DNA of 64,000 bases from an uncultured archaeon (GTDB lineage Archaea; Aenigmatarchaeota; Aenigmatarchaeia; QMZP01), in contig CAZSLL010000003.1 in NCBI GenBank assembly GCA_964607835.1, forward strand, positions 3,826 to 67,825. The letters run 5' to 3'. The notes beneath the pieces are model-generated. The model was not told where the DNA came from. It searched no databases and saw only the letters and a program-made list of their open reading frames with translations. The translations under genes were made by a program, and so were the position numbers. Positions 6,412 through 25,124 of this stretch are shown here, piece after piece; within the stretch, counting starts at the first letter, position 1; every line of letters begins with the position of its first letter.

Positions 6412-6809
6412 GCCTGCGTTGGCTTCCTGCTCTTTTCTCCCCTCGCATTGGCCTGTGATACCCCGGCAGACCGGGTCTTCTCTTTCCCTGATTTTATGGT
6501 CCCGCTCACCCGCAGGCTCTGGAATATGACCTTCTGGTCCCCGAGCTGGTGTATGAGTCCCATGGACACCTTGACCGCGTCCACGTACTTCGGGGAGACC
6601 TGGATGAACCCCTTCTGCTCCCTGCTGTTCCAGAGGTTCCTGAGGATTCTCACCCCTGCCCTGGCCAGGCCGGCCTCCCCTATCCAGTGCTCCATGGAGT
6701 TCCATAGCGCGTCCCGAACGGCCTCGTAGCCCACGGGCCTCTCAGAGGCCACCCTGAATACGATGTATCTCCTGCTTCCCCGCGAGCTTGGCAGCCTCCT
6801 GATTCCCAT
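6408..6809 (-). CDS. rnp2: RNase P protein component Pop5 (Rnp2)
   Basis: 133 aa; N-terminal LPSSRGSRRYIVFRV matches the archaeal Pop5 signature (LPPxLRxKxRYixFev); size typical. Confidence 0.55.
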   Translation of the reverse strand: MGIRRLPSSRGSRRYIVFRVASERPVGYEAVRDALWNSMEHWIGEAGLARAGVRILRNLWNSREQKGFIQVSPKYVDAVKVSMGLIHQLGDQKVIFQSLRVSGTIKSGKEKTRSAGVSQANARGEKSRKPTQA

Positions 6810-8987: not shown

Positions 8988-9147
8988 GCAATAACCCTTT
9001 CTTTGTCAATTTGATGGAAAATGATTTAAGCCCTTGTGCTGTCTTCCCACCGTTTCCGGTTTAAATGAATGGACCCAAATATTATGCATGGAGGGGAAAC
9101 GCCCCAGACCAGGCAAAATCCTGAGGGAGTTCGAGCCAGGAGGCAAC

Positions 9148-9654
9148 ATGGTAAGGTTCAGGTACCTCAGGAAAGATGATATTGAGGGAGCCATGAGGCA
9201 CATCAATTCCCTGGTAAATGAGAAAGCCTACATCGGGATGCAGAAGAGCAAGACCAGGAAGCAGGAGAAGGAATGGCTCGAGCAGGCGCTTGAGGGCATG
9301 AGGAAGGGAAAATCCCTCACTGTTGTTGTGGAGGTAAACGGTGAGTTCAGGGGCTCTGCAGGCGTGAACAGGAAGCCCCTTGACGCCAATTCACATGTAT
9401 GCACCTTCGGACTGGGAATACACGGGGACTACAGGTCGATGGGCATAGGAACAGAGCTCATGAAGCTCCTGATACAGCAGGCCAGGGACGTGCTGGGCTG
9501 CAGAGTGGCAGAGATATCCGTTTATGAGCCCAACCTTGCTGCCAAGAGGCTCTACGAGAAGATGGGCTTCATGGAGACAGGCAGGATTCCTGAAGGGTGC
9601 CACTACTTCGGGAAATACTATGACGAGATAATACTGGTGAGGAAGCTTGATTGA
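9148..9654 (+). CDS. GNAT family N-acetyltransferase
   Basis: Acetyl-CoA binding motif region GLGIHGDYRSMGIGTELMKLLIQQAR and C-terminal AKRLYEKMGF; internal Met start chosen, listed ORF begins 9034. Confidence 0.6.
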   Translation: MVRFRYLRKDDIEGAMRHINSLVNEKAYIGMQKSKTRKQEKEWLEQALEGMRKGKSLTVVVEVNGEFRGSAGVNRKPLDANSHVCTFGLGIHGDYRSMGIGTELMKLLIQQARDVLGCRVAEISVYEPNLAAKRLYEKMGFMETGRIPEGCHYFGKYYDEIILVRKLD

Positions 9655-10756
9655 CCAGGAGAGGCTGACCAGGACCCTACAGGAGCTGGTGAGGATTCCC
9701 AGCCACAAGAGCATGGAGAAAATCTCTGATTACGTGGCCTCTGAGATTCGCAAGGCCGGGCTGGAGCCAGAGGCTGACGACGAGGGCAACGTCCTGGCCT
9801 CCGTTGGCTCTGGGGAGGGCTTCCTCCTCAACGCCCACCTGGACACCGTGGGGGTGGAGGGCTACCCTGACGCCTTCTCCGGTGAGGTCAGGGACGAGAA
9901 GCTCTACGGACGGGGCTCCACTGACTGCAAGGCAGGCGTGGCCGCCATGCTCGAGATTCTCAGGGTTCTCGCCAGGAGCCCGCCCAGAAAGCGTGTTGTC
10001 TTCGCCTTCACCGTGTGGGAAGAGGGCCACGGCCCTGGAAAGGATGGGGCCTATGCTCTTGCCCCAAAGATAAAGGCCTCGCACGGCCTGGTCCTGGAGG
10101 ATGCTGTAAAAGAGGACGGCTCCATGGGCGTGACCATAGGGTGCAAGGGCCGCTCTGGTTTCTCTGTTGAGGTGAAGGGTAAGGCAGGTCACTCCAGCCA
10201 GCCCAGGGATGCCGACAACCCGATTTACTCCGCAGCCAGGCTCTGCCAGGAAATAGAGTCCATCGAGCCCCAAAGCGTGGAGGTCCAGGGCTACGGGGAG
10301 CTGGAGTCAGCCATTAGCGTCACCGAGATTCATGCCCAGGAGGGAGGTAACGTCATACCCTCCACCTGCTCCCTCACAGTGGACAACAGGACCCTTCCGG
10401 GCAAGATCCCTGAGCAGGCCAGGAAGGAAATGGAGAGGCTCTGCTCCAAGGCCCTCGGTAAAAGATTCTCACTAAAAGCAAAGGGAAAGGAGGGCTTCCT
10501 CCAGCACGACCCTGCTTTCATTAGGCTCTGCCGCTCAGCCGTCAAGGAGGCATGCCTGAAGCCCTTCACCCACTTCTCCCCTGGCTGGAATGACGCTGCT
10601 GTGTTCAACAGCCACGGCATAAAGACCCTCAAGATGGGCCCGGGCACCATAGGCCAGGACCACCGGAATCCCGAGTACTGCTGGTTGCCTGGTTTCGTTA
10701 AGGGCACGCAGGCAATATTAAATGTCATAAAGGCATGGGACAGGGGAAAGCTTTAA
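9647..10756 (+). CDS. M20 family metallopeptidase (ArgE/DapE/LysK-like deacylase)
   Basis: LNAHLDTVGV and GRGSTDCKAGVAAMLEIL metal-binding motifs of the M20 family; 369 aa. Confidence 0.65.
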   Translation: MIDQERLTRTLQELVRIPSHKSMEKISDYVASEIRKAGLEPEADDEGNVLASVGSGEGFLLNAHLDTVGVEGYPDAFSGEVRDEKLYGRGSTDCKAGVAAMLEILRVLARSPPRKRVVFAFTVWEEGHGPGKDGAYALAPKIKASHGLVLEDAVKEDGSMGVTIGCKGRSGFSVEVKGKAGHSSQPRDADNPIYSAARLCQEIESIEPQSVEVQGYGELESAISVTEIHAQEGGNVIPSTCSLTVDNRTLPGKIPEQARKEMERLCSKALGKRFSLKAKGKEGFLQHDPAFIRLCRSAVKEACLKPFTHFSPGWNDAAVFNSHGIKTLKMGPGTIGQDHRNPEYCWLPGFVKGTQAILNVIKAWDRGKL

Positions 10757-10803
10757 ATTATATTCAATTATATGTGTCATATAATTACATATAAGGTGAT
10801 TTT

Positions 10804-10992
10804 ATGGGAAACCTTACCACAATCCAGGTAGAGAAAGGCACAAGGGAAGAGCTCAAGGAATGCGGCCTTAAGGATGAGACCTATAATGAAATCATAACAA
10901 GGCTGATAAACATAGCAAGAAAGCACGAGTTCTTCAGCAGACAGAGAAGCATTCTAGAGAGCGAGAGGTTTGTTGCTCTTGAAAGCGTATAA
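10804..10992 (+). CDS. putative antitoxin of RelE/ParE pair
   Basis: 62-aa ORF immediately upstream of, and slightly overlapping, a RelE-like toxin gene. Confidence 0.4.
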   Translation: MGNLTTIQVEKGTREELKECGLKDETYNEIITRLINIARKHEFFSRQRSILESERFVALESV

Positions 10993-10996
10993 GGTG

Positions 10997-11260
10997 ATGT
11001 TGTCAGAGACAGCGCTCTCCCATCTGCGCTTTCTTGATCATGATACCAGGGAAAGGGTTAAGCAGCATCTCAGAGAACTTGGCCGCGATCCCTTCTCGAG
11101 GAGGCCAAAAGCAGACATCAAAATCCTCCATGGCTCCAGGAACCCTGCACTATACAGGCTAAGAATTGGAAGCTACAGAGCGATTTTTGCTGTTAAAGGC
11201 GAGCAGGTAATGGTTACAGAGATTGTGCACAGGAGCAGGGGTTATAAATGGCTGGAATAG
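10997..11260 (+). CDS. RelE/ParE family toxin
   Basis: C-terminal YRLRIGSYRAIFAVKGEQVMVTEIVHRS matches the RelE/ParE core (YRlRiGdYRaiy...); alternative start 10970. Confidence 0.55.
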   Translation: MLSETALSHLRFLDHDTRERVKQHLRELGRDPFSRRPKADIKILHGSRNPALYRLRIGSYRAIFAVKGEQVMVTEIVHRSRGYKWLE

Positions 11261-11273
11261 AGGTGAATTGTAT

Positions 11274-12686
11274 ATGAAAGTCACAATTGGACTGGAGACC
11301 CACGTCCAGCTCAATACACAGAGCAAGGCGTTCTGCGGGTGCAGGAATCCGGTCAACCTCGAGGAGGAGCCTGAGCCCAATACACTGCTGTGCGAGACCT
11401 GCCTGGGTCTCCCGGGCTCAAAGCCCAGGGCCAACCGGGCCATGCTCGAGAAGGCCCTGAGGGTCTCGCTTGCACTGGAGTGTACCATAGCCAGGAAGAC
11501 ATACTTCTCCAGGAAAACCTACTTCTACCCTGACATGAGCAAGAACTTCCAGATAACCCAGTACGAGGTCCCCCTTGCGGCCACGGGCAGGCTCAGGGTG
11601 GGGGACCGGGACATCAGGATAAAGAGGGTGCACATGGAGGAGGACCCCTCAAAGATTGTTCACGTGGGCGGCCTTGGCGGCAGCCACACCCTGCTGGACT
11701 ACAACCGCGCAGGGGTCCCTCTAATCGAAATCGTCACAGAGCCTGACTTCACCAGCCCTGAGGAGGCCAGGCTCTTCCTCCAGAAACTCGAGAACATCCT
11801 GGAGTACCTCGGTGTTTATGACTCCTCCTCACGGGCGGTCTTCAAGTCAGACGCCAACATCTCCCTCTCCGGGGGGAAGCGGGTTGAGGTCAAGAACATC
11901 ACGGGCACCAGGGAAATCGAGCAGGCCCTCAAGTACGAGATAGTGCGCCAGCATAACCACATAAAGCGCGGCGGGAAAATCGTTCAGTCCACCAGGACCT
12001 GGGACCCTGCCACCGGGACAAGCAGGGAGCTCAGGCTCAAGGAGACCGAGGCTGATTATGGCTACATCTTCGAGCCCGACCTCACGGTTCAGGAGATAAA
12101 GGCCTCCTACGTGTCCTCCATCAGGAAGGCCCTCCCCGAGCTCCCTGACCAGAGGATGGCCAGGTTCGTGAAGCAGTACGGTCTCCACCCCAAGACAGCA
12201 GAGGCCCTGGTCTCAGAGCTCGACCTCTCAGAGCTCTACGAGCGGGCTGCCGGGAAGACCGACCCAAAGCTCGCCGCCACATGGGTAGCGGGCTACCTCA
12301 AGAAGAGCCTCAACTACAGAGACCTCCGCTACAGGGGCTCAGGCCTTAAAGAGGAGTGGCTCTTCTCCCTGCTGAAAACCACCCAGAGAGGAGAGCTCAC
12401 CGACCGCAATGCCGAGCTTGTCCTGCGGGGCATGGTGGAAAAGAGGGAGCCCCCTGAGAAGGCCATGAAGAGGCTTGGAATCGGGAAGCGGGTGGACCCC
12501 TCAAAGGACAGTGGAGTTACCCAGGCCATAGAGAAGGTGCTCAAAGCCAACCCCGGGGCCGTGCAGGACTACAAGTCAGGCGAGGAGAAGGCCCTCCACT
12601 TCCTGGTGGGCATGGCCATGCGCGAGACCCGCGGCCAGGTGGACGCCAACGACGCCAAGAGGCTCATACTAAAGCTTCTCGAATAG
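11274..12686 (+). CDS. gatB: Glu-tRNA(Gln)/Asp-tRNA(Asn) amidotransferase subunit B
   Basis: MKVTIGLETHVQLNTQSKAFCGC N-terminus typical of GatB; size about 470 aa argues for GatB rather than GatE; listed ORF starts upstream at 11223. Confidence 0.85.
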   Translation: MKVTIGLETHVQLNTQSKAFCGCRNPVNLEEEPEPNTLLCETCLGLPGSKPRANRAMLEKALRVSLALECTIARKTYFSRKTYFYPDMSKNFQITQYEVPLAATGRLRVGDRDIRIKRVHMEEDPSKIVHVGGLGGSHTLLDYNRAGVPLIEIVTEPDFTSPEEARLFLQKLENILEYLGVYDSSSRAVFKSDANISLSGGKRVEVKNITGTREIEQALKYEIVRQHNHIKRGGKIVQSTRTWDPATGTSRELRLKETEADYGYIFEPDLTVQEIKASYVSSIRKALPELPDQRMARFVKQYGLHPKTAEALVSELDLSELYERAAGKTDPKLAATWVAGYLKKSLNYRDLRYRGSGLKEEWLFSLLKTTQRGELTDRNAELVLRGMVEKREPPEKAMKRLGIGKRVDPSKDSGVTQAIEKVLKANPGAVQDYKSGEEKALHFLVGMAMRETRGQVDANDAKRLILKLLE

Positions 12687-13091
12687 CTCCTTCCCGAGCC
12701 TTGCCGTCTCTTCTGTCTCTCCGATGGTATTCAGCCTCTTGATGAGCTCAATGTCCACCCATTCGGGAACAGTCTTGTTGCTGACCCTAAGGTCCCCTTT
12801 GAACACCCTTGCTACGAATGCCGTGAAAGAGAACCGCTTTATGCCGTCCTTCTGCCGGATGTCAGTCAACCAGAGCTTGGGTATTTTGAAAAGTTCGTGC
12901 TCCTCCACCCTCAGCCCTGTCTCCTCCAGAAGCTCCCTGGCTGCAGCCTGCTTCTCGGTTTCCCCTGCTTCCAGCTTTCCCGCGGGCAGTCCGTAGCTGC
13001 CTGTAAGGTGGCTGGCCTGGTCAAGGTGCCTGACCAGCAATACCTGGCTTCCCTTCAGAACGACTATACCAGCTGTAGGTATTGCTTCCAT
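12669..13091 (-). CDS. NUDIX hydrolase
   Basis: Nudix box GKLEAGETEKQAAARELLEETGL; start at internal Met 13091 because the upstream part of listed ORF overlaps a tRNA gene. Confidence 0.6.
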   Translation of the reverse strand: MEAIPTAGIVVLKGSQVLLVRHLDQASHLTGSYGLPAGKLEAGETEKQAAARELLEETGLRVEEHELFKIPKLWLTDIRQKDGIKRFSFTAFVARVFKGDLRVSNKTVPEWVDIELIKRLNTIGETEETARLGKELFEKL

Positions 13092-13093
13092 GA

Positions 13094-13302
13094 TGAGCCC
13101 GGCAGGATTCTCGTTAGCCGGAAGTTGCCCCGAGCTCAAGCGAGCGGGCAACTCCTTTTGGCTGAAGCCTTTTCCTGAAAAAGGCTTCTTTCGAACCTGC
13201 AACCCCCCGGTTTCCCCGGCAGGTGGCCTCCGAAGCTTCACCTCTCCTCACCCCCCTCGGGAGTGCAGGGAACGGGTGCTCTATCCATTAAGCCACGGGC
13301 CC
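13094..13302 (-). tRNA. intron-containing tRNA (class II-like, anticodon unresolved)
   Basis: Minus-strand read GGGCCCG-TG-GCTT-AATGGATA-GAGC ... GCAGG-TTCGAAA [82-nt intron 13107..13188] CCTGC-CGGGCTC-A; acceptor pairs with one G-U; extra about 50 nt in anticodon region plus CCGGGGAAACCGGGG variable-arm-like hairpin. Confidence 0.5.
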
Positions 13303-13358
13303 ATCGCTCCCCTTTGGGAACGCATAACCAATATTGCGGGCTTTTAAATAAATCTTGC

Positions 13359-13745
13359 TCACTCCAGGGCCCCTATTTTAACAGAATCCCCGTCCTTCAG
13401 GCCCAGCCTCTCCCTCAGGTTCTCACCTGAAACAATCTCTATCACCCCTGGCTCGTGGGTGGCCCTGTCCGGGAACACGGCAGCGCCCGGAACCCCGTTC
13501 ACAGCGCAACTGATGAGGGAGAGCCCCCCATAGGTCCTATCCCCGTCCAAAAAGCCCTCTATCCTCTCCATGGCTCTCTTTCTCAGGAAACCGGTCTCCT
13601 CTGGTGAGGCCTTCACGTTGAGGGTGCCCGGAAAGGGCTGTTCCCCAAGAACCTTCCCGAATGCCCTCCTGTAATGCGCCATCTCCACGAAAAGCTTTCC
13701 CCTGCCCATGCCTGATTCCACTTTCCCCTCAACCTTCAATGCCAT
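13359..13745 (-). CDS. ribK: CTP-dependent riboflavin kinase (archaeal RibK, DUF120)
   Basis: GKVESGMGRGKLFVEMAHY ... PFPGTLNV pattern of archaeal riboflavin kinase. Confidence 0.55.
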   Translation of the reverse strand: MALKVEGKVESGMGRGKLFVEMAHYRRAFGKVLGEQPFPGTLNVKASPEETGFLRKRAMERIEGFLDGDRTYGGLSLISCAVNGVPGAAVFPDRATHEPGVIEIVSGENLRERLGLKDGDSVKIGALE

Positions 13746-13796
13746 GCTTTATGTTGGCTGCCAAGCCTTTTATCCGGGCTAGGCCAATTATATAAC

Positions 13797-14687
13797 ATGA
13801 ACAGGGGCATGCTCTTCCTCATAATATCCGGAATCTGCCTGAGCACAATCGGCATATTCATCAAGCTCCTCGGCCCGAGCATATCCCCCTTTCTCCTGGC
13901 CTCGGTTAGAATCCTGGCCGCAGCAGGGCTCATATACCTGTTCCTGGCCTCTGAGAGGAGGACAAAGCTTCTCGAGCTGAAAGAGGGGGACCTGCACATA
14001 TTCCTCCTCGCAGGGCTGTTCGGCATAGTCTTCGGCTTCGGGTTCTACGTCAAGTCGCTCACCATGATTCCCGTGGCCAATGCGGTCTTCCTCATGTACA
14101 TATACCCGGTTGTCACGGCCATCCTGGCCAGGCTCTTCCTTGACGAGCGGATAGGCAGGTACACCATCCTGGCCCTTCTGCTCTCCCTCTCAGGAATCTA
14201 CCTCATCTACGGATACGGCGTCAACATAGTGGCACTCTCAGAGGGGAGCATGTACGCCCTCATAGCGGGCCTGGGATACTCTGTGTTCATAGTGTCCATG
14301 AGGCACATGGAGAAGAAGGGTCACTCCTACTGGGATGTTGTTTTCTGGCCCCTGGTGCTGGGCGGCCTAATGCTCCTGCCCCTCAACCTCACCTCCGGCA
14401 TAATCCTGCTGCCGTCAGCAAACATGGTCCTCCTCCTGGCAGGTGTGGTGTTCATATCCACCTTCCTGGGATACCTGTTCTACGCCCGGGGCCTCAAGAC
14501 CATCCAGGCCAAGCACGCCACCATAATAGAGAACCTGGCCGAGCCCTCTGCCGCCATATTCCTGGCCTGGCTCATACTGGGAGAACTCGTCCCTGAGTAC
14601 GTGTTCCTGGGGGGCTTCCTCATAATCCTCGCCAACCTCGTGGTCAGGCTCGACATGGGGGAAGACGAACACAGGAAAAAGATATAA
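13797..14687 (+). CDS. EamA/DMT superfamily transporter
   Basis: 296 aa, about 10 TM helices arranged as two EamA-like halves. Confidence 0.65.
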   Translation: MNRGMLFLIISGICLSTIGIFIKLLGPSISPFLLASVRILAAAGLIYLFLASERRTKLLELKEGDLHIFLLAGLFGIVFGFGFYVKSLTMIPVANAVFLMYIYPVVTAILARLFLDERIGRYTILALLLSLSGIYLIYGYGVNIVALSEGSMYALIAGLGYSVFIVSMRHMEKKGHSYWDVVFWPLVLGGLMLLPLNLTSGIILLPSANMVLLLAGVVFISTFLGYLFYARGLKTIQAKHATIIENLAEPSAAIFLAWLILGELVPEYVFLGGFLIILANLVVRLDMGEDEHRKKI

Positions 14688-14720
14688 TAGTTAGGACCCC
14701 ACTATTATCTGTGACTGCAC

Positions 14721-16763
14721 ATGCTTCTGGGAAAGATATCAGGCAGGATTACCACCAAGAGCGTATCCTTTGACGCCGACGCCAGGGTCAGGAAGCTGGA
14801 CTATGTCTCCATCAAGGACCCTGAGGGAAGGTGGATACTGGCCAACATTGACAGCGTGACCAGGTACGAGACCAAGACCAAGGTCACGGCCAGGATTGTC
14901 GGATACAGGGACTCCAGGGGCTTCCTCAAGACCCCCAAGATTCCCTTCGCCCCCAGCACGCCTGTCTTCTCAGCCCCCAAGGACTTCATACGCCAGACCC
15001 TGGGCCTGAACAGGTCAGGCGCCTACATGGGACTCCTGGAGGGCTATGACATCAGGGTCATGCTGAACACAGAGCACATGATAAGGAAGCACATATCCAT
15101 TCTGGCCAAGACCGGCGCAGGCAAATCCTACGCAGGAGGGGTCCTGCTCGAGGAGCTCGCCGAGGCAAAGATGCCTGTGGTGGTGATAGACCCCCACGGG
15201 GAGTACAAGACCCTGAGGCTCAACAACAAGAACAAGAAGGAGACCAAATACCTGGAGAGGTTTGGGGTGGAGGCCAGGAACTACAGGGACCAGGTCACGG
15301 TTTACGGGGTTTCCACGGCCAAGAGCCTTCGCCTGAACTCCAAGCTGTCGGCAGAGGAGATTTTCTCCATGCTCCCCGCCGCCCTTTCCTCCACGCAGAA
15401 GGGCCTGCTCTTCTCCTCATTGAGGAACCTTGAGGGCAAGGACTACACCATCAGGGACATAATAGATGAGGTGGCCAACGCCAACTCCCAGGCCAAATGG
15501 AACCTTGTTTCCATGCTCGAGTTCCTGGAAGGCACCAGGCTCTTCTCAGCAAACCCCACCCTTCCCAACGACCTGGTGAAGCCCGGGCAGATAACTGTGC
15601 TCGACCTCAAGGAGGAGAGACCTGAAATCCAGCAGATAGTGGCGCTCAAGATTATAGAGGACCTGTTCAGGGCAAGGAAGCATGGCAAGATTCCCTCCTT
15701 CCTTCTCATGCTCGAGGAGGCCCACAACTTCTGCCCTGAGAGGGGATTCGGCGAGGTGGCCTCCTCCAGGATAATCCGGACAGTGGCCTCAGAGGGCAGG
15801 AAGTTCGGCTTCGGCCTTTGCATGGTCACCCAGAGGCCCGCCAGGGTGGACAAGTCCGTGCTCAGCCAGTGCAACACCCAGATTATACTCAAGGTAACCA
15901 ATCCCAACGACCTCAAGGCCATTACCGATTCCGTGGAGGGGGTGACCCCGGGGCTGAGGGAGGAGATAAGGGACCTGCCAGTGGGGGTGGCCCTTGTGGT
16001 GGGGGCCACAGAGCAGCCCCTGGTGATTGACATCCGTGTCAGGCGCACCCAGCACGGGGGTGAGTCCATAGAGATAGGGGAAATCAAGGAACTCCAGGAG
16101 AAGCCCCTGGCCTTCCAGCCTCTCATCGGAAAGGGAGAGGTGAGCAAGGAGTTCAAGTCCATCAAGGACGTAAACCTGCTTCACTACCCCATGTGGAGGG
16201 TTTCCGCCCTGTTCGGCAGCACACCTGTCACCTTCTACGTGGACGGCATATCTGGCGAGCTGGTGTTCAAGAAGGATGACTCCATAGAGCGCTCCAGCGG
16301 ACTCAGGGAGCTCATGGACCTGGCACCTTCAAGCAGGATAATCATATTCTACCTCACCAAGAACAAGCTCGCAACCGCGGAGAGGATTGCCGAGGACCTC
16401 AAGATGCCCCTTAGCACAGTCCAGGGCAACGTGAGGGAACTTCTGGCCAGGGACTACCTCACCACTGACGGCTACATGTTCAGCAACAAGCTCAGGTTTG
16501 AGAACATCCCCCCCAACCCCTCAAAGGTCCAGCTCTCTGAGAAGCCCGAGAAGAGGGAACTGGAGGGAAGGAAGCTGGAGTTCATGGTCACCCAGGACTT
16601 CGTGCGCAAGGTTTCGGAGCTCTGGTCCATGCCCATACGCTCCATAGAACCCTCCTATTACCCGTACTGGCTGGTCAGACACAAGGACAGCAACGTGCTC
16701 ATAGACGGCCTGAACAGGAGCCTTGACCACGAGACCACCAGGCTAATCGCAAAGTTCATCTGA
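14721..16763 (+). CDS. DUF87/HerA-like P-loop ATPase with C-terminal winged-helix domain
   Basis: Walker A ILAKTGAGKSY, VVVIDPHGEY, Walker B LLMLEEAHNF, QRPARVDKSVLSQCNTQIILKV; C-terminal IIFYLTKNKLATAERIAEDL wHTH-like segment. Confidence 0.6.
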   Translation: MLLGKISGRITTKSVSFDADARVRKLDYVSIKDPEGRWILANIDSVTRYETKTKVTARIVGYRDSRGFLKTPKIPFAPSTPVFSAPKDFIRQTLGLNRSGAYMGLLEGYDIRVMLNTEHMIRKHISILAKTGAGKSYAGGVLLEELAEAKMPVVVIDPHGEYKTLRLNNKNKKETKYLERFGVEARNYRDQVTVYGVSTAKSLRLNSKLSAEEIFSMLPAALSSTQKGLLFSSLRNLEGKDYTIRDIIDEVANANSQAKWNLVSMLEFLEGTRLFSANPTLPNDLVKPGQITVLDLKEERPEIQQIVALKIIEDLFRARKHGKIPSFLLMLEEAHNFCPERGFGEVASSRIIRTVASEGRKFGFGLCMVTQRPARVDKSVLSQCNTQIILKVTNPNDLKAITDSVEGVTPGLREEIRDLPVGVALVVGATEQPLVIDIRVRRTQHGGESIEIGEIKELQEKPLAFQPLIGKGEVSKEFKSIKDVNLLHYPMWRVSALFGSTPVTFYVDGISGELVFKKDDSIERSSGLRELMDLAPSSRIIIFYLTKNKLATAERIAEDLKMPLSTVQGNVRELLARDYLTTDGYMFSNKLRFENIPPNPSKVQLSEKPEKRELEGRKLEFMVTQDFVRKVSELWSMPIRSIEPSYYPYWLVRHKDSNVLIDGLNRSLDHETTRLIAKFI

Positions 16764-17145
16764 ATGGCTCTATTCCCCTCAGCCTCTTGTATTCTCCTAC
16801 AATTTGCTCTGCTAGCTCTTTGCTCGTTCCGGCGTATTCCAGAAACCCCCTGAGAAAAGCCAGGGCATTCCCCTCACCTGACTTATGCTCAATCTTCTGG
16901 GTCATCAGAAAGGCGTCCCTCATGGCTTCCTCCCTCTCCATTATGTCAGGCACGCACGACTCGCATGTGCTGTAAAGCCCCCTGCTGAATTCATCATAGA
17001 GGCCGGATATCCCGTGAGAGAGATAGTGCTCGCTTAGCTGCTCTCCGATTGGGCATTCGCTGCAGTTTCCCTGATATCCTGGGTCTTTCATACCCGGACC
17101 TGGGTCAAAATATATAAAAGCACAACATTCAATTCTTATAACCAA
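16756..17145 (-). CDS. hypothetical Cys-rich protein
   Basis: 129-aa ORF with CSECP and CESCVP pairs; no family assignment. Confidence 0.3.
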   Translation of the reverse strand: MVIRIECCAFIYFDPGPGMKDPGYQGNCSECPIGEQLSEHYLSHGISGLYDEFSRGLYSTCESCVPDIMEREEAMRDAFLMTQKIEHKSGEGNALAFLRGFLEYAGTSKELAEQIVGEYKRLRGIEPFR

Positions 17146-17146
17146 T

Positions 17147-17605
17147 GCCGGTGTGGCTTAGTGGTTAAAGCGCCAGACTCATAACCAGCCTTTTTCAGGA
17201 AAAGGCTGGAGCCAAAAGGAGTTACCCACTCGCTGATGCTCGGGGTAACTTCCATGGCCCGAATCCAAGCAAACATGATGGTTATGAGTGTTGAGGATGC
17301 CTTCAGTCAGGCGGATTCGCCGTCTGCATGCACGCCAGTGCGAGCATCCGATGATAGCTGGGAAATCTGGAGATCGAGGGTTCAAATAACCCTTTTGTCC
17401 AGGATAAACGGACAAAAGCGTTTGCGGAAAGAACGCTTCCGCAACAGGTTGAGCAAAACACGTAAAGGTGTTGGAAACGTCAATCGTTTCCTGTTGCTCC
17501 CCCGCTTGCGACATGCGAGCGCTGGCCCTTCACGGCCCGAGAATCTTTGTGAAGGCCGTGCAGGCGAAGCGTCTGTAAGCGGGGTTGGGAATCCCTCCAC
17601 CGGCA
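17147..17605 (+). tRNA. tRNA-Met: tRNA-Met (CAT) with two large introns
   Basis: Exon1 17147..17184 GCCGGTG-TG-GCTT-AGTGGTTA-AAGC-G-CCAGA-CTCATAA; exon2 17366..17387 TCTGG-AGATC-GAGGG-TTCAAAT; exon3 17593..17605 CCCTC-CACCGGC-A; exons total 73 nt; introns of 181 nt (after pos 37/38) and 205 nt (in T-loop). Confidence 0.75.
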
Positions 17606-17736
17606 TTCCTAATTCTGTCCTGAATCAAAATGAAGAATAAAATCACAACGAGACTTCGGTTCTTGTGGTTACCATCATTGCCCCAGTTGGAAACTGTTTC
17701 GTGTTGCTGTGTTTTCAGGGAGGTATCAGCCTGTGC

Positions 17737-17964
17737 TTATATCTCCTTTATCTTTGAAGAGACGAAGTCCTTTATCTCCTGCTCGTCAGGGATGGCAAGG
17801 CTCTTCTTGAACCTCTTGGTCCCGTCAGGAAGGAAGAAACCCCTTGAAATCGCAATGAACTCGTTCTCGCCGTCCTCAACGACAGCCTTCTTCCTTGCGA
17901 CCTCGAGGAAGTTGTTCTTGCCGAACTTTACCTCTTCTGACTTCACGGTCTGGAATTCAACCAT
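17737..17964 (-). CDS. small nucleic-acid-binding protein (PC4/YdbC-like?)
   Basis: 75 aa, EVARKKAVVEDGENEFIAISRGFFLPDGTKRFKKSLAIP resembles PC4-like ssDNA-binding fold proteins; weak. Confidence 0.3.
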   Translation of the reverse strand: MVEFQTVKSEEVKFGKNNFLEVARKKAVVEDGENEFIAISRGFFLPDGTKRFKKSLAIPDEQEIKDFVSSKIKEI

Positions 17965-18016
17965 TGTATTACCTCCTGTGTTGGGTATGAAATGAGTATC
18001 CGGATTTGGCTTAAAT

Positions 18017-18044
18017 AGTTAACGGTTAAACCAGTTAACTGTTA
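18017..18044. promoter_or_regulatory. GTTAAC-rich palindromic repeat upstream of nucleotidyltransferase gene
   Basis: AGTTAACGGTTAAACCAGTTAACTGTTA, 65-90 nt upstream of ATG 18110; related copies at 30591..30622 and 42846..42861. Confidence 0.3.
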
Positions 18045-18109
18045 TACTATACTGATTGCCCGGATTTCCGGCGCACCCTTTTTAAATCATTCCCGCGAAA
18101 GACACACTC

Positions 18110-18856
18110 ATGAAAGCGATTGTGCTGGCGGGCGGCTACGCCAAGAGGATGTGGCCCCTCACAAAGGACAGGCCCAAGCCCCTGCTCCCGGTTGGCGGGA
18201 GGCCCATGATAGACCATGTCATGGACAGGCTCCTCAACATAGGAAGCATTGACACTGTCTACATTACAACCAACCGCAAGTTCGAAGGGGTCTTCAGCGA
18301 GTGGCTCTCGGGCAAGGAGTTCCCAATCCCCGTCAGGCTCGTGGTCGAGGACACCGCAGCGGAGGAGGAGAAGCTGGGCTCCATAGGGGCCATGAGGCAC
18401 ATCATCCAGAAGGAGGGCATAGATGATGATGTCCTCTGCATGGGAGGGGACAACCTGCTGGAGGACCACCTCAGGGACTTCGTGAGATTCTTCAGGGAGC
18501 AGGGCACCACTGTGTTCGGGCTCTGGGAGATGGACTCAGGTGACCTGTGCAAGTTCGGAATAGCCTGCCTGGACGACCAGGGGAGGGTGGTGCATTTCGA
18601 GGAGAAGCCCCCGCAGCCCAAGTCCAGATTCGTGTCCACTGCGGTTTACGCCATACCCAGGGGCGAGCTTGGGCTCATCAGCGAGTACCTCTCCGGCAAG
18701 AACAACCCCGACGCATTCGGGCACTTCATATCCTGGCTCTACTCCAGGACCCCTGTCTACGGATTCGTTTTCAGGAACAAGTGGTTTGACATAGGCTCCA
18801 TTGAGGCCTATGAGTCAGCGAACAGGCACATGCTGGACAGGCAAATCAATTCCTGA
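18110..18856 (+). CDS. sugar-phosphate nucleotidyltransferase (glucose-1-phosphate thymidylyl/uridylyltransferase-like)
   Basis: MKAIVLAGGYAKRMWPLTKDRPKPLLPVGGRPMIDHV N-terminal NTP-transferase signature. Confidence 0.7.
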   Translation: MKAIVLAGGYAKRMWPLTKDRPKPLLPVGGRPMIDHVMDRLLNIGSIDTVYITTNRKFEGVFSEWLSGKEFPIPVRLVVEDTAAEEEKLGSIGAMRHIIQKEGIDDDVLCMGGDNLLEDHLRDFVRFFREQGTTVFGLWEMDSGDLCKFGIACLDDQGRVVHFEEKPPQPKSRFVSTAVYAIPRGELGLISEYLSGKNNPDAFGHFISWLYSRTPVYGFVFRNKWFDIGSIEAYESANRHMLDRQINS

Positions 18857-19544
18857 TTACCGTGCCCCGGAATCCCTTCCCCGAGAGGTAGCTGTCCAGG
18901 TTGCTTATCCTCTTCCCGTTCATTATGGCAACCTCGAGCCCGAGCTTCTCGGCCTCCTTCGAGGCCACGGGGTCGAAGGGGTGGCTGGCCCCTGGGTCCC
19001 ACCTGTCTCCCACGAGCTTCCTGAAATCCCCCCAGGACATCTCCTTTATGGGCTTTGCGTCCCTGTGGTATTTAGGGTCCTTGTCATACACGAAGTCTAT
19101 GTTGGAGAGGTTGATCAGCTTCCCTGCTTTGAAGTTCCTTGCCATGAGAACGGCGTCATAGTCAGTGGAGCACCCCGGCTTCCATCCAGCCCCTATCAGG
19201 ATGCTCTCCCTGAACCTTATCCTCTCTGAGGGGTCCTTGATGACCCTTGGGTGAGCGTGGTCCCTGAATATTGTCCTCAGAAGGTGGGCGTTGAACCTGG
19301 TGGCGTGTATGCCCAGCCAGTCCAGGTCGTCCCTGGTGAGCTTCGTTATCTCAGAGGCCGCCTTCTGGTAGCGCCTGCACACCTTTCCGCCGCCGGATAT
19401 GATGATGAACTTCCTTCCCTTCCTGGCGTGCTTCAGAATGAGCTCCCTGAAGCTTCTGAGAAAGGGAACGTCAACGCCGTCAGGGACTATTATGGAGCCG
19501 CCAAGGCTCAGGATTACGAGTTCTTTGTCCCCCGGCATTTGCAT
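18846..19544 (-). CDS. amino-acid kinase family protein, probably UMP kinase
   Basis: LVILSLGGSIIVP ... IIISGGG ... AGWKPGCSTDYDAVLMA ... NIDFVYDKDPKYHRDAKPI; start at internal MQMPG, listed ORF extends to 19640. Confidence 0.55.
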   Translation of the reverse strand: MQMPGDKELVILSLGGSIIVPDGVDVPFLRSFRELILKHARKGRKFIIISGGGKVCRRYQKAASEITKLTRDDLDWLGIHATRFNAHLLRTIFRDHAHPRVIKDPSERIRFRESILIGAGWKPGCSTDYDAVLMARNFKAGKLINLSNIDFVYDKDPKYHRDAKPIKEMSWGDFRKLVGDRWDPGASHPFDPVASKEAEKLGLEVAIMNGKRISNLDSYLSGKGFRGTVIRN

Positions 19545-21416: not shown

Positions 21417-24400
21417 GTGGCTGACAAGAAAAATGCGGTGGCAGAAAAGAAAAAGAGAGACAGGAAGCCGCCTGAAGAGGATGAGGGAAAGAAGACCGAG
21501 ATGGTGGCAAGGCTCAAGGAGCTCCTCCACAAGAAATACCTTAAGCAGCTCAACAAGGCCGCCCTTGAGGAAAAGGCACTTGTTATAGACTTCGCCACCC
21601 TTAGCAAGTTCTCATACGAGCTGGGAGAGGCCCTGCTCAGCCAGCCTGACTTCCTCCTGGAATGCGCCAAGGAGGCAGAGGAGGCAATAGAGGGAGTGCC
21701 CGGGCCGGTTCCGGTCAGGATTATGAGCCTGCCTGAGATGACATCCATCAGGGACCTGAGGGCCAAGCACCTCGGAAGGTTCCTCTCAGTGGAGGGCACG
21801 GTCAGGAGGGCATCTGAGATAAGGCCTGAGATACAGAAGGTTCTCTGGGAGTGCCCTGAATGCGGGGACATCATAGAGGCCTACTCAGAGGTGGGCATGA
21901 TAAGGAAACCCTTTGCCTGCAACTGCGGCAACCGCACAGGGTTCATAAAGAAGCATTCAGTCCTGGTGGACACGAGGTGGGTGACCATAGAGGAGCCCTT
22001 CGAGCTCACAGAGGGTGACCGCCCCTCCCAGATAAATGTGGTCCTCAATGACGACCTTGTTTCCAGGCATGGGCGGCGCATGACAGACCCGGGGAACAGG
22101 ATAAAGGTCACCGGAATCCTGAGGGAGACTCCCAAGGGAAAGATATTCTCCTCCAAGCTCGACCTCTTCATGAGCGCTAACCACGTGGAGCCCACTGAGA
22201 TTGGCTGGCACATGCTGGACATCTCAGAGGAGGATGAGAAGGAAATCAAGAGGCTGGCAAAGGACCCCAAGATATACGACCTCCTGGTGGGCTCCCTTGC
22301 CCCAAGCCTGTACGGGCTCACTGAGATAAAGGAGAGCATAATACTCCAGCTGTTCGGCGGCGTTCCCCTGCACCTCAGGGACAAGACCCATGTCAGGGGA
22401 GACATCCACGTGCTGCTTATCGGTGACCCCGCAGCGGGAAAGTCCCAGCTCCTCAAGCTCGTCCCTGAAATAGTCCCCAGGGGCAAGTACGTGTCCGGTA
22501 AGGGGACAACAGGAGCCGGGCTGTGCACGGTCTATGACAGCCTGGTCCAGATGGAGGACGGCGGTTTTGTTAGGATTGGTGAGCTGGTGGAGAATGAGCT
22601 CAGTGGAAACTCAAAGAGTCATTCAGAGGGGATTACCGTGGCCAGCAACCCCTCCCGCAGGAAGGTACTCAGCCTCTCGGGAAGCAGCGGCAAGCTGAAA
22701 CCCATGGAAATCACCCAGTACTGGAAGATAAAGGCCCCTGGAAAGCTGGTCAGGATAACGACCAGAAGCGGAAGAGAGGTAACAGTGACCCCGGACAACC
22801 CCATACTGACCATGTGCAATGGCATTCTCGAATGGAAGAAGGCAGCACATCTCAGTGACTCTGATTACGTGGCCTCGGCGAGGGCCATTGCAAAGCCCCC
22901 TGAAAGGGATGTTCCCCTGGCTGACCTTGTCGAGGATTCTGTGCATGTGCTGGAGTCAGGGGACATAGTCAAGAGGCTTGTCCATGAGATAAGAGCCCGT
23001 GGCAGTATCAGGGAATATTCCGCAAGGTCAGGAATCAACGAAAACAGCCTTTACCATTCCTGGATAAGGAATGATGCTGTTGGAAACCCAGACATGGGCA
23101 CGCTCAGGGGAATATGCCGCGACATGGGAATGGATTACGGCGAGCTCATTCCCCCAAGGATGCGGCTCTCACAATACAAGGGCCATGAGATAATGCTTCC
23201 CAGGCACCTGAATGCAGACCTGATGTACATTGCAGGCCTTATTGCAGGGGATGGAAGCATATCAAGCACAGCTTATGGCGGAATGGACATCAAATTCTGC
23301 AGCGCTGACGAATGCCTCCTCGAGTCATTCCGCCGGCTTTGCGAGAAGCATCTGAGGGCTCCGCTAAGGGAGGAGTCCAGGGGAAGGATACCTTACATGA
23401 GGTTCAGGTCCAAGATATTCGCCAGGATACTCTCAGAGCTGGGAATACCCCACGGGAAGAAGTCGTCCAGCATCAGGGTTTCGCAGATGCTCTCGTCCCT
23501 CCCTGACAGCCTCGTCCGGGCCTATCTCCAGGGCATCTTCGACACGGATGGCAGTGTGCAGCCGCGGACATCCGGCTCCAGTGTCATTGAGCTCACCACA
23601 GCCAGCAGGGAATATGCCCGCGGAATCCAGCTCCTTCTCCTGAGGTTCGGCGTATTGTCTTCGGTAAGGGAGAGGAGGGCCACAGAATCCGTCATTCATG
23701 GCAGGACTGTCAGGTCTGGCAGGAAATGGAGCCTTGAGATAAGGGGCGAAAACACATCATCCTTCGATGGTAGTGTTGGCTTCAGGCTCGCCAGGAAGTC
23801 TGCCAGACTCGATGAGCTTATTTCCTCTTCAGGGAAGAGCAACACGAATACAGATGTTGTGCCCGGGATAGCGGGATTGCTCAGAAGGGCCAGGCTATCG
23901 GCAGGCCTCTCGGCAAAGCAGCTATACGGATACAAGAACTACACTTATGAGCGTGGTGAAAGAAGCCCTTCGCGGGTCATGCTCAAGAGAATAGCTGACA
24001 GGCTGGCTGAGCATTCCAGCGGCAGGGATGCAGAAACCCTCATGATGCTCGCCTGTTCAGATATCCTGTGGGAAAGGCCGCGAATTGGCCTCATCGACAA
24101 CAAGGAGCACGAATATGTGTATGACGTGACGGTCGAGGGGGAGCACAGCTTCATGGCCAATGGGGTGATAATCCACAACACCGCGACCGTGACCAAGGAT
24201 GAGCAGTTCATGGGAGGCTGGGTGCTCGAGGCAGGGGCCATGGTGCTTGCCAACAAGGGCATGCTCGCAGTGGACGAGTTCGAGAAGATGTCGCCAGAGG
24301 ATCAGGTGGCCATGCATGAGGGCCTTGAGCAGGGCACTGTGTCCATAGCCAAGGCCTCCATTGTGGCAACACTTCCCGCAAAGACCTCTGTGCTTGCGGG

Positions 24401-25124
24401 AGGCAACCCCAAGTTCTCCAGGTTCGACCCTTACGTGCCCATCTCAAAGCAGATAACAATCACAGACACCCTGCTCTCCAGGTTCGATCTCAAGTTCGCG
24501 ATCCAGGACAAGCCCCAGAGCGCGAGGGACAAGAGCGTGGTGGACCACGTCATAAAGACCAGGGAGGACGAGAACTTCGAGGGCGCCATGCCAAAGATAG
24601 ACCCTGCCTTCATAAGGAAGTACATAGCCTATGCCAGGGAGCACTGCGAGCCAAAGTTCAACAAGGAGGCAGGCAAGATTCTCAGGAACTTCTACATAAA
24701 GACCAGGAAGAGGTCAGAGGGCTCCGGCTCTGTGCCCATAACCATGAGGCAGTTCGAGGCCCTGCTCAGGCTCTCAGAGGCTTCTGCCAAGATTCAGCTC
24801 CAGCCCGAGGTCAGGAAGGAGGACGCCCAGAGGGCCATAAGGCTCATGAAATGCTCGCTCAAGCAGCTGGGGCTTGACCCCGAGACCGGCGAGATTGACA
24901 TAGACCGCTCTGAGGGAGGAACCCCTGCCAGCGAGAGGTCCAAGATAAGGATTGTTCTTGACATAATCGACAAGCTCTCTGAGACCAAGAAGGAGATAGC
25001 CCTGGAGGAGCTCAGGAGCGCCGCAAGGGGAGACGGCGTGGACGACGTGGACGACATCATCGAGAGGCTCAAGACCCAGGGCCTCCTCTTCGAGCCCTCC
25101 CCCGGATTCGTGCAGAAGGTTTAG
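21417..25124 (+). CDS. mcm: MCM replicative helicase (intein-containing precursor)
   Basis: Zinc finger CPECGD...CNCGN, Walker A IGDPAAGKSQLLK, GKGTTGAGL | intein | TATVTKDE...VDEFEKM arginine finger region; extein about 683 aa. Confidence 0.9.
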   Translation: MADKKNAVAEKKKRDRKPPEEDEGKKTEMVARLKELLHKKYLKQLNKAALEEKALVIDFATLSKFSYELGEALLSQPDFLLECAKEAEEAIEGVPGPVPVRIMSLPEMTSIRDLRAKHLGRFLSVEGTVRRASEIRPEIQKVLWECPECGDIIEAYSEVGMIRKPFACNCGNRTGFIKKHSVLVDTRWVTIEEPFELTEGDRPSQINVVLNDDLVSRHGRRMTDPGNRIKVTGILRETPKGKIFSSKLDLFMSANHVEPTEIGWHMLDISEEDEKEIKRLAKDPKIYDLLVGSLAPSLYGLTEIKESIILQLFGGVPLHLRDKTHVRGDIHVLLIGDPAAGKSQLLKLVPEIVPRGKYVSGKGTTGAGLCTVYDSLVQMEDGGFVRIGELVENELSGNSKSHSEGITVASNPSRRKVLSLSGSSGKLKPMEITQYWKIKAPGKLVRITTRSGREVTVTPDNPILTMCNGILEWKKAAHLSDSDYVASARAIAKPPERDVPLADLVEDSVHVLESGDIVKRLVHEIRARGSIREYSARSGINENSLYHSWIRNDAVGNPDMGTLRGICRDMGMDYGELIPPRMRLSQYKGHEIMLPRHLNADLMYIAGLIAGDGSISSTAYGGMDIKFCSADECLLESFRRLCEKHLRAPLREESRGRIPYMRFRSKIFARILSELGIPHGKKSSSIRVSQMLSSLPDSLVRAYLQGIFDTDGSVQPRTSGSSVIELTTASREYARGIQLLLLRFGVLSSVRERRATESVIHGRTVRSGRKWSLEIRGENTSSFDGSVGFRLARKSARLDELISSSGKSNTNTDVVPGIAGLLRRARLSAGLSAKQLYGYKNYTYERGERSPSRVMLKRIADRLAEHSSGRDAETLMMLACSDILWERPRIGLIDNKEHEYVYDVTVEGEHSFMANGVIIHNTATVTKDEQFMGGWVLEAGAMVLANKGMLAVDEFEKMSPEDQVAMHEGLEQGTVSIAKASIVATLPAKTSVLAGGNPKFSRFDPYVPISKQITITDTLLSRFDLKFAIQDKPQSARDKSVVDHVIKTREDENFEGAMPKIDPAFIRKYIAYAREHCEPKFNKEAGKILRNFYIKTRKRSEGSGSVPITMRQFEALLRLSEASAKIQLQPEVRKEDAQRAIRLMKCSLKQLGLDPETGEIDIDRSEGGTPASERSKIRIVLDIIDKLSETKKEIALEELRSAARGDGVDDVDDIIERLKTQGLLFEPSPGFVQKV
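22524..24179 (+). mobile_element. MCM intein with LAGLIDADG homing endonuclease domain (552 aa)
   Basis: Begins with Cys (AGL|CTVYDS), ends VIIHN|T; LAGLIDADG motifs YIAGLIAGDGSI and LQGIFDTDGSV. Confidence 0.8.

Follow-up and report, generated by a model that had tools for sequence, protein, structure and literature searches.

Positions 17147–17605 of a 64-kb stretch of DNA from an uncultured archaeon of the Aenigmatarchaeota (hereafter the window) hold a tRNA-Met gene that is divided into three exons by two long introns, the first of which contains a core that may guide methylation of the tRNA's own anticodon. It is surrounded by genes of archaeal type, which encode GatB, a CTP-dependent riboflavin kinase, HerA and an MCM helicase with an intein. 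When the exons proposed by a first-pass annotation of the sequence (17147–17184, 17366–17387 and 17593–17605) were joined, ARAGORN recognized a 73-nt tRNA-Met(cat) with perfect acceptor, D, anticodon and T stems, in agreement with that annotation; CCA is not encoded. ARAGORN, intron option included, found nothing at the unspliced locus, and it reported 0 tRNAs in the window as a whole. Rfam returned nothing at the locus at gathering score, and in E-value mode its tRNA model reached 20.9 bits on the 5′ part of the locus, compared with a cut-off of 29. Extending Rfam, in both modes, to relatives and to the whole window added nothing of use apart from a sub-threshold SRP RNA. After manual removal of the T-loop intron ARAGORN did find tRNAs, with introns and anticodons misplaced.

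A scan of species-representative genomes with the sequence of the D arm and anticodon arm gave five matches. Three are intron-less tRNA-Met genes from Iainarchaeum/Forterrea-type archaea of the DPANN superphylum, and the other two, L002 among them, have introns at the same place as the window; L002, an Aenigmatarchaeota assembly, is collinear with window positions 10670–17190 at a protein identity of 70–79%. Further copies of the gene were obtained from contigs that encode homologues of HerA, which carry Aenigmarchaeota names in their source records, so that ten distinct versions could be compared: the window, L002, L005, L010, L011, L012, L014, L016, L018 and L020. The HerA proteins of the nine relatives are 65–83% identical to that of the window. 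In L017 (HerA 65% identical) synteny is lost, and a metagenome pattern scan for the junction of intron 1 and exon 2 returned only the species of L005 and one chance match. The mature tRNA-Met is 73 nt long and near-identical in all ten versions, exon 1 is the same or almost the same in the nine relatives, and the T-stem pair 50:64 is compensated among them (A-U to U-G or U-A). Every version has intron 1 (48–181 nt; 48–143 nt in the relatives) and only L010 is without intron 2 (40–205 nt where present; 0–91 nt in the relatives), the window having the longest form of both. The introns are therefore unusually long within their own gene family, and they also exceed the published range for archaeal tRNA introns of 11–129 nt, mostly 12–25 nt (2014 review, PMC4090602), as the first-pass annotation had surmised.

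The window sequence by itself leaves the splice points ambiguous, since the ends of intron 1 share a repeated A and those of intron 2 a repeated AAT. The relatives and the geometry of the bulge-helix-bulge motifs described below place the sites at 37/38 and 59/60, which changes the exon lengths from 38, 22 and 13 nt, as first annotated, to 37, 22 and 14 nt and leaves the intron lengths of 181 and 205 nt as they were. Specifically, the T-loop of the relatives reads TTCAAA↓C...↓TCCC (arrows, splice points), so U60 must come from the 3′ exon; the second intron does have the non-canonical T-loop location claimed for it, but at 59/60 and not at 60/61.

The A/T-rich box upstream of tRNA position 1, read in the sequence, has counterparts ~35–50 nt upstream of tRNA-Met in relatives, and we infer that it is a putative archaeal promoter. 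Each intron folds better than all 200 of its shuffles (z = −3.1 for intron 1 and z = −4.9 for intron 2). An independent Logan assembly of SRR7048225 is identical across window positions 15456–18882, and the split structure is thus not an accident of assembly.

Bulge-helix-bulge motifs and a candidate splicing enzyme

The intron–exon junctions, whose folding the first-pass annotation had proposed as a check, form bulge-helix-bulge motifs at both introns. At intron 2 the motif is of the full hBHBh′ type, with the T-stem as flank, a central helix UUCA/UGGG in which U54–A57 pair 4/4 with the four intron bases preceding the last two, bulges AA↓U and AA↓U, and an outer helix AACCC/GGGGU that begins at intron base 2 and has one mismatch. 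Every intron 2 of the relatives fits a bulge-helix-bulge in the 59/60 register. The partner of UUCA varies among tRNA-Met introns (UGGG, UGAA or UGGA). Elsewhere in the window, UUCG of other tRNAs is paired with CGGG or CGAG, such that the central helix covaries across 11 introns; the outer helix covaries as well (GAACC/GGUUC, GACC/GGUC).

At intron 1 the anticodon stem is the flank, C32–A35 (CUCA) pairs 4/4 with UGGG at 17359–17362, and the bulges are UA↓A and AA↓A. The same element in the relatives is UGGG, AGGG or UGCG, followed by AA. The cut position inside this bulge is that of the canonical 37/38 geometry. The outer helix takes two forms: in the short introns of L016 and L020 the intron ends pair end to end (UUUGG/CCAGG), and in the long introns its place is taken by a local hairpin, hairpin 1 (HP1), which has 11 bp from intron base 2 onward and covaries among relatives (CCAGCC/GGCUGG, UAAGCC/GGCUUA, UGAACC/GGUUCA). 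The canonical 37/38 position first proposed for this intron is thus supported by a covarying motif.

A suitable enzyme is encoded close to the gene in two relatives. The 393-aa protein of L016 and L020 matches the epsilon2 endonuclease of ARMAN-2 (4FZ2) from end to end (E = 1e-97) and also matches Pfam tRNA_int_endo. The ARMAN-2 enzyme cuts both 37/38 and 59/60 introns in vitro (PMC3239211), and enzymes of the epsilon2 type have been reported only from Micrarchaeum (ARMAN-1, ARMAN-2) and Mancarchaeum (PMC5829648). The likeness to multi-intron tRNAs of the Thermoproteales and ARMAN type that was first suspected is therefore borne out by conserved exons, covarying motifs and an ARMAN-2-type three-unit endonuclease in close relatives. 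Self-splicing of the group I or group II kind was considered and rejected: no Rfam intron family matches at gathering score or by E-value, and the introns of relatives are as short as 48 and 40 nt, whereas ribozyme introns of these groups usually exceed 200–400 nt. Because the exons are conserved and the bulge-helix-bulge motifs covary, we conclude that this is a real and conserved tRNA-Met gene with what appear to be endonuclease-spliced introns, the product of neither decay nor misassembly, and both introns are very probably spliced.

A conserved guide-like core in intron 1

The lowest-energy fold of the precursor pairs the anticodon loop with a segment inside intron 1. This segment belongs to a core, overlooked in the first-pass annotation, that combines a guide complementary to the anticodon with a kink-turn and has the form U(U/C)AUGAGU(G/U) – U(U/A)GA – 10–55-nt hairpin – (G/U/A)AU – GA(U/A/C)A in all ten introns. 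The pairing extends across the 5′ splice site: the complementary stretch is 9–12 nt long among the ten introns, the guide-like segment forms 11 contiguous pairs in the window and 7–12 in the relatives, and the helix is 97% paired across the ten sequences. Directly downstream lies a kink-turn with all of the expected parts, that is, a Watson–Crick stem, a 3-nt bulge, tandem G•A and A•G pairs, a U•U pair and an A-U pair. The box D′-like strand is UUGA in nine versions and UAGA in one, and its first U pairs with the last A of GAUA in all ten; the three closing pairs of hairpin 3 (HP3), which is 10–55 nt long in relatives, are 100% paired, and all three covary. A U•U pair following the tandem G•A is typical of box C/D kink-turns, and the strands here follow one another as in the internal C′/D′ topology, with the D-type box first, then the loop and then the C-type box. 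Counted upstream from UUGA or its variant, the fifth base of the guide is in all ten versions a G paired with C34 (17180), in keeping with the rule by which box C/D guides choose the nucleotide for 2′-O-methylation.

Covariation was counted on a hand-assembled 58-column alignment of the ten sequences. In it 97.9% of cells are paired and six pairs have changed on both sides; none of 500 shuffles equalled the observed pairing or covariation score, and sliding the partners by 1–3 columns reduced pairing to only 35–49%. The changes reach the intron part of the guide helix. Specifically, the pair between intron base 1 and the guide is A:U in the window and G:C in L020, and the next partners go from CCA:UGG (window) to UCA:UGA (L014) to UAA:UUA (L002, L018). 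The guide thus covaries with intron bases 1–4 and not with mature position 38, and its partner is therefore the unspliced precursor.

We also considered a complete C/D RNA and rejected it, as a second kink-turn is not conserved; UGAU strings are present in some copies, and they shift with the complementarity to the intron start. The element would be at most a half-mer. A generic scan of the window for a kink-turn plus guide was noisy (15 matches versus ~5 in shuffles; a looser version was worse) and was used solely to confirm the three intron cases in tRNA-Met, tRNA-Leu and tRNA-Gly.

Part of the protein machinery could be traced. A close relative, L008, encodes fibrillarin at 11187–11846 (−), ~2 kb from tRNA-Met (PF01269, E = 7.8e-79); of the tblastn matches to fibrillarin and L7Ae queries it was the only one kept, after confirmation by Pfam, and methylation machinery therefore exists in the clade. 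L7Ae and Nop5 were not seen in the sequences examined, the L008 locus stopping before a possible adjacent Nop5.

Other split tRNA genes in the window

The gene was first described as rare, a view that does not hold within its own genome. By a combination of intron BLAST, a search for acceptor and T-arm pairing, manual parsing and ARAGORN after intron removal, we recovered at least five further split tRNA genes, making at least six in the window with 2–4 introns each (Table 1), none of which ARAGORN or Rfam detects unspliced. An automated search that combined bulge-helix-bulge motifs with ARAGORN proposed 7,000–10,000 motifs on each strand, with assemblies that were ambiguous or spurious, and the manual parses were used in its place.

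Table 1. Features of the tRNA-Met locus, the other split tRNA genes of the window and the splicing endonuclease of two relatives (window positions unless a contig is named)
Feature	Position	Strand	Remarks
TATA-like A/T-rich box ATATATAAAA	17110–17119	+	28–37 nt upstream of tRNA position 1; putative promoter
tRNA-Met	17147–17605	+	2 introns
Exon 1	17147–17183	+	tRNA 1–37: acceptor 5′ strand, D arm, anticodon stem 5′ strand, loop CUCAUA
Intron 1	17184–17364	+	181 nt, canonical position 37/38
HP1 hairpin CCAGCCUUUUUCAGGAAAAGGCUGG	17185–17209	+	11 bp, outer helix (h′) beside 5′ splice site
Module GCCA-AAA-HP2(GGAGUUACCC...GGGUAACUUCC)-UGGC	17211–17258	+	forms cassette with HP1
Guide-like segment UGGUUAUGAGUG	17279–17290	+	complementary to A31–A37 and four intron bases (ACUCAUA↓ACCA, 17177–17187)
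UUGA, box D′-like	17291–17294	+	non-bulged kink-turn strand
HP3, kink-turn C-stem GGAUGC/GCAUCC	17295–17349	+	topped by lineage-specific branched insertion
Bulge GAU and GAUA, box C′-like	17350–17356	+	bulged kink-turn strand: G•A, A•G, U•U, A-U
UGGG and AA	17359–17364	+	3′ strand of central helix and first two bases of 3′ bulge
Exon 2	17365–17386	+	tRNA positions 38–59
Intron 2	17387–17591	+	205 nt, non-canonical position 59/60, T-loop
Exon 3	17592–17605	+	tRNA 60–73: U60, T-stem 3′ strand, acceptor 3′ strand, discriminator A
tRNA-Arg(UCG)	13302–13094	−	3 introns: 30/31 36 nt, 37/38 18 nt, 59/60 82 nt
tRNA-Leu(CAA)	31061–30682	−	380 nt; 4 introns: D-loop 94 nt, 37/38 47 nt, variable arm ~64–77 nt, 59/60 83 nt
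tRNA-Gly(UCC)	34198–34001	−	2 introns: 29/30 85 nt, 59/60 42 nt
tRNA-Pro(UGG)	35440–35635	+	2 introns: 37/38 47 nt, 59/60 74 nt
tRNA-Thr(CGU)	35645–35809	+	2 introns: D-loop 29 nt, 37/38 63 nt
393-aa splicing endonuclease	L016 11653–12834; L020 5360–6541	+	1.3–1.4 kb downstream of tRNA-Met

Two of these genes repeat the design of tRNA-Met intron 1, one of them closely. The tRNA-Leu(CAA) gene is recognized by ARAGORN only after four segments are removed, the junction in the variable arm being ambiguous, and its 37/38 intron reads CCUUGAG-AU-UUGA-(8-bp hairpin)-GGU-GAUA (30925–30887), the layout of the short tRNA-Met introns, with the fifth base of the guide again pairing with C34. An orthologue on L021 (8803–9075), a contig of the same genome assembly as L005, is without the D-loop intron and keeps the layout through compensatory changes: its guide is GGCUUGAG-UA, the pair of intron base 1 with the guide has gone from G:C to C:G, the C-stem differs in sequence, and the D′ box UCGA facing GAGA turns the U•U position into C-G. 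In tRNA-Gly(UCC) the 29/30 intron carries CUGA-(GCCCC...GGGGC)-GGU-GAUU (34165–34093) after a guide whose fifth base pairs with U34, in a duplex of just 7 bp. The case for half-mer guides in introns appears strong in tRNA-Met and in tRNA-Leu(CAA); in tRNA-Gly(UCC) it is weak.

Some features of these genes stand apart from the guide question. The D-loop intron of tRNA-Leu holds UGAUGA ... CUGA strings. An open reading frame (ORF) for a NUDIX protein at 12669–13241 (−) is over-extended across the tRNA-Arg gene. Just upstream of tRNA-Pro, at ~35350–35439 (+), the first ~13 nt of that gene recur as a partial copy (GGGGCCGTGGCGT...), after which comes an intron-like hairpin module. The position of this copy is conserved in L021 (~6409–6539), and the copy could represent a leader, what is left of an intron insertion, or one more split of the gene.

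Origin of intron length

The core of intron 1 needs only ~48 nt, the length found in L016. In the window it is supplemented by HP1 and the module GCCA-AAA-HP2-UGGC (together 17185–17258), by a linker and by the branched insertion on the C-stem (17295–17349). BLAST of the introns against the window revealed paralogues of the HP1/HP2 cassette, 85–88% identical, at 13186–13120 (−) and 30770–30709 (−), where they lie in the T-loop introns of tRNA-Arg and tRNA-Leu. The only role of the cassette for which there is evidence is that of an outer splice helix. Likewise, the first part of intron 2 (AACCCUUUUG...CAAAAGCGUU.GCGGAAAGAACGCU.CCGCA) recurs in introns of tRNA-Pro and tRNA-Thr, and its first ~60 nt are homologous to the 75–91-nt introns of relatives; a further ~125 nt have no counterpart in the sequences compared and form an insertion particular to this genome.

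The strong hairpins that the first-pass annotation saw in both introns belong in part to such shared intron modules and in part to lineage-specific insertions. The string quoted as an example (AAGCCTTTTTCAGGAAAAGGCTT) lies outside the gene, at 13187–13165 (−) in the T-loop intron of another tRNA gene; its local counterpart is CCAGCCTTTTTCAGGAAAAGGCTGG at 17185–17209.

Intron content also differs between relatives. Intron 2 of tRNA-Met is of type A, of type B or absent, orthologues of tRNA-Arg (in L011, L016, L008, L002, L012 and L018) have one to three introns with three intron types at 59/60, and the tRNA-Pro and tRNA-Thr orthologues of L021 have other intron sets. Since modules are common to different tRNAs and introns are present or absent among relatives, tRNA introns have evidently been gained, lost and exchanged in this lineage, much as has been suggested for Thermoproteales (cited in PMC3239211), and the tRNA-Arg comparison indicates that gain, loss or replacement has been recent there. 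The great length of the tRNA-Met introns is due to added hairpin modules and insertions, namely HP1/HP2, the upper part of HP3 and the larger part of intron 2, all of them missing or shorter in relatives.

A proposed mechanism and its alternatives

Our interpretation, which we hold to be probable, is that the gene encodes a functional elongator-type tRNA-Met(CAU) with two bulge-helix-bulge introns, the first of which serves as a half-mer guide for 2′-O-methylation of C34 (Cm34). Splicing in vivo, protein binding and methylation are here deduced from sequence comparison, and towards the last of these, methylation of C34 directed by intron 1, we lean only slightly. In this model a TATA-type promoter would drive a ~460-nt precursor (the gene is 459 nt) that would adopt the guide conformation first. 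L7Ae, Nop5 and fibrillarin would assemble on the half-mer guide of intron 1, which might work in cis or through a Nop5 dimer that bridges two precursors or two excised introns, and the complex would 2′-O-methylate wobble C34. Artificial half-mer C/D particles, bridged by a Nop5 dimer, have been used for crystallography. As the guide helix buries the 5′ splice site, the RNA would have to refold into its splice-competent bulge-helix-bulge form; an archaeal endonuclease, probably of the broad-specificity three-unit epsilon2 type, would then remove both introns and a ligase would join the exons. More tentatively, and a little short of what we would call probable, tRNA introns of the Aenigmarchaeota lineage may commonly carry single-kink-turn half-mer guides that methylate their own nucleotide 34 before splicing.

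Several observations weigh against this interpretation. As regards splicing, the outer helix of the long forms of intron 1 is a local hairpin in place of paired intron ends, which makes a variant substrate; the central helix has only 3/4 pairs in L010 and L011 and one mismatch in L016 and L020; and the splicing endonuclease was found in relatives only, not in the 64-kb window. As regards the guide, the covariation alignment was built around the motif by hand, which favours the structure. Inspection of intron 1 found no second kink-turn, no conserved box C (RUGAUGA) upstream of the guide and no box D (CUGA) downstream of it, and archaeal C/D particles normally require both motifs for efficient methylation. 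Rfam gave no C/D family and no snoRNA or sRNA match at E ≤ 10 across 16900–17900, and none of fibrillarin, Nop5 and L7Ae is encoded in the 64-kb window.

The lack of a conserved box C or D partner for the one kink-turn is also what lends weight to an unlikely but serious alternative, in which both introns are spliced and the kink-turn and anticodon pairing are only structural, acting as an L7Ae-bound scaffold, a folding chaperone, an anticodon mask or a splicing timer. L7Ae does bind kink-turns outside guide RNAs as well, for example those of RNase P RNA and of mRNA leaders. Furthermore, the 5′ part of the guide in the short introns can pair with the C′-box region to give a 9-bp outer splice helix, so that conservation of the guide could partly serve splicing. 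However, the central splice helix needs just four pairs, which it obtains from the separate UGGG, and an 11–12-bp helix that buries the 5′ splice site is unnecessary for splicing. The distance from kink-turn to nucleotide 34 also speaks against a purely structural role, being fixed in all ten tRNA-Met versions and recurring in tRNA-Leu of two species and in tRNA-Gly; so does the U•U pair, which is of the box C/D kind; and Cm34 of tRNA-Met is known to be made by a C/D guide in haloarchaea (PMC4033218) and likewise in humans (PMC6601510). Identity poses a different problem, because the CAU anticodon is common to archaeal Met and Ile2 tRNAs, a further point against our interpretation, and ARAGORN derives the isotype from the anticodon alone. 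We regard it as improbable that the gene is a tRNA-Ile2(CAU) whose C34 becomes agmatidine to read AUA, in which case the structure would be the same and the methylation target doubtful. The tRNA is not an initiator, having G1–C72 and lacking three consecutive G-C pairs in its anticodon stem; the guide aims at the ribose of C34, where the mark is documented for elongator tRNA-Met (PMC4033218, PMC6601510); and the closest precedent, the C/D-like intron of Nanoarchaeum, lies in an elongator tRNA-Met (PMC3491384). None of these three points is decisive.

That the locus represents a tRNA pseudogene, through decay or disruption, or else an artefact of assembly, with retained inserts, is hardly credible. 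Such a reading could appeal to the failure of standard tools to detect a tRNA and to gene callers that put hypothetical ORFs across the locus, for example a 111-aa ORF at 17179–17514 (−), which is listed as a gene in the public Logan call (L001 1301–1636). The independent assembly is nevertheless identical, and the exons are perfectly conserved while neighbouring proteins are only 65–83% identical. Intron lengths differ by non-multiples of three while the splice motifs covary; all six tRNA genes of the window are split, no intact tRNA gene having been found in its 64 kb; and a suitable endonuclease exists in relatives. The same irregular length differences led us to reject both the 111-aa ORF and a 134-aa ORF at 17236–17640 (+) as coding sequences.

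Neighbouring features

The 384-nt gap between HerA and tRNA-Met is filled in the window by a 129-aa ORF at 16756–17145 (−) with no Pfam match. The gap measures only ~35 nt in L002, where the promoter box of the tRNA lies over the end of HerA, and the ORF region may be a lineage-specific insertion. In L007 (~10285–10390; also in L008, L005 and L015) a stretch directly upstream of tRNA-Met starts with AATGATGG and, ~95 nt away, ends with TTCTGAACC; this might be an independent small RNA of the box C/D class, above the usual length of such RNAs in archaea. The MCM helicase gene (21417–25124, +; 1235 aa) is interrupted by an intein, and its orthologue in L012 matches Pfam Intein_splicing and LAGLIDADG_3. 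Further downstream, at 49234–49579 (+), lies a divergent archaeal signal recognition particle (SRP) RNA of 346 nt, which matches positions 1–317 of Rfam Archaea_SRP (E = 9e-10; 55.4 bits versus a gathering score of 96.5).

Novelty and significance

Several aspects of this gene appear to be new. These are the single-kink-turn architecture that emerges from the ten-fold comparison, with its apparent recurrence in tRNA-Leu and perhaps tRNA-Gly; covariation that points to the precursor as the pairing partner; introns of 181 and 205 nt, beyond the reported maximum of 129 nt, together with an apparent four-intron gene, where the maximum for an archaeal tRNA gene was three (PMC3239211); a predicted epsilon2-type endonuclease in Aenigmarchaeota, outside the Micrarchaeum group; and the complete failure of routine tRNA detection. 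A literature search for Aenigmarchaeota tRNA introns found no description of such a system, which is weak evidence given its incomplete coverage.

ARAGORN and Rfam missed all six tRNA genes in 64 kb, which accounts for incomplete tRNA sets in DPANN genomes (PMC5829648) and affects inferences of completeness and codon usage for these lineages. If our interpretation is true, intron-borne guides would be a recurring answer to wobble-ribose methylation and not a curiosity of tRNA-Trp, and one kink-turn would suffice in vivo, which bears on the assembly of C/D particles and on the co-evolution of guides and introns. The element would be a minimal cis-encoded system for RNA-guided modification, the natural counterpart of the artificial half-mer C/D RNAs, and the introns of the short relatives (48–53 nt) are of a handy size for work in vitro.

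Comparison with known systems

Earlier work has established that tRNA genes can have several introns, that introns occur at 59/60, that splice motifs can be relaxed, and that these features go together with endonucleases of broad specificity (PMC3239211, PMC5829648, PMC4090602). The window resembles Thermoproteales and ARMAN-2 (Candidatus Micrarchaeum), whose endonucleases are epsilon2 or (alpha-beta)2, in having several introns per gene, recurrent use of 59/60 and, in relatives, a predicted endonuclease of the broad kind, and it resembles Thermoproteales in sharing related introns between different tRNAs, described there as 'intron transposition' (PMC3239211, PMC5829648). In contrast to the archaeal tRNA introns reported so far (11–129 nt), those here are 18–205 nt long, most of them >40 nt, and tRNA-Leu requires four removals. 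The tRNA-Met gene would be one case of a system, spread through the lineage, of long tRNA introns built from modules, and some of these introns resemble minimal self-targeting guides.

For the guide, the sR-tMet RNA of Haloferax offers one comparison: it is the product of a separate trans-acting gene with C/D and C′/D′ motifs, whereas the guide here lies inside the adjoining intron. Joardar et al. are said to have described in 2011 that sR-tMet pairs with the intron-containing precursor across the exon–intron junction and has an atypical C′/D′ motif. Its target nucleotide, C34, is the same (entry in PMC4033218).

A closer parallel in architecture is the C/D RNA within the tRNA-Trp intron of Haloferax, Pyrococcus and other Euryarchaeota, which guides Cm34 and 2′-O-methylation of U39 (Um39) and which reviews up to 2024 cite as the example (PMC4090602, PMC11408192). 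It too lies at 37/38 and has kink-turn boxes, and it pairs with the anticodon region of its own precursor such that nucleotide 34 takes the fifth position counted from the D-type box; its guide and splice conformations are mutually exclusive, as we predict here (PMC4090602, PMC11408192). In contrast, the tRNA-Trp intron is complete, with all four boxes (C, D′, C′, D) and one guide each for C34 and U39 in ~65–105 nt, whereas the tRNA-Met intron has one D′/C′ kink-turn and one guide in up to 181 nt. The host differs as well, being tRNA-Trp in the known system and tRNA-Met here, with the design found again in tRNA-Leu(CAA) and perhaps tRNA-Gly(UCC).

The nearest precedent is in Nanoarchaeum equitans, also of the DPANN superphylum, where, according to Randau (2012), the elongator tRNA-Met has a 66-nt intron that forms a stable RNA and carries C/D-like boxes (PMC3491384). 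That intron is likewise long for its own genome, and a strong G-C hairpin separates its consensus box D from its degenerate box C, resembling the order UUGA-hairpin-GAUA found here; the short introns of relatives (48–53 nt; L010, L016 and L020) are near it in size. No target or guide rule is known to have been reported for it, and the gene in the window adds a T-loop intron and large extra modules. The Nanoarchaeum tRNA-Met intron is very likely an element of the kind described here.

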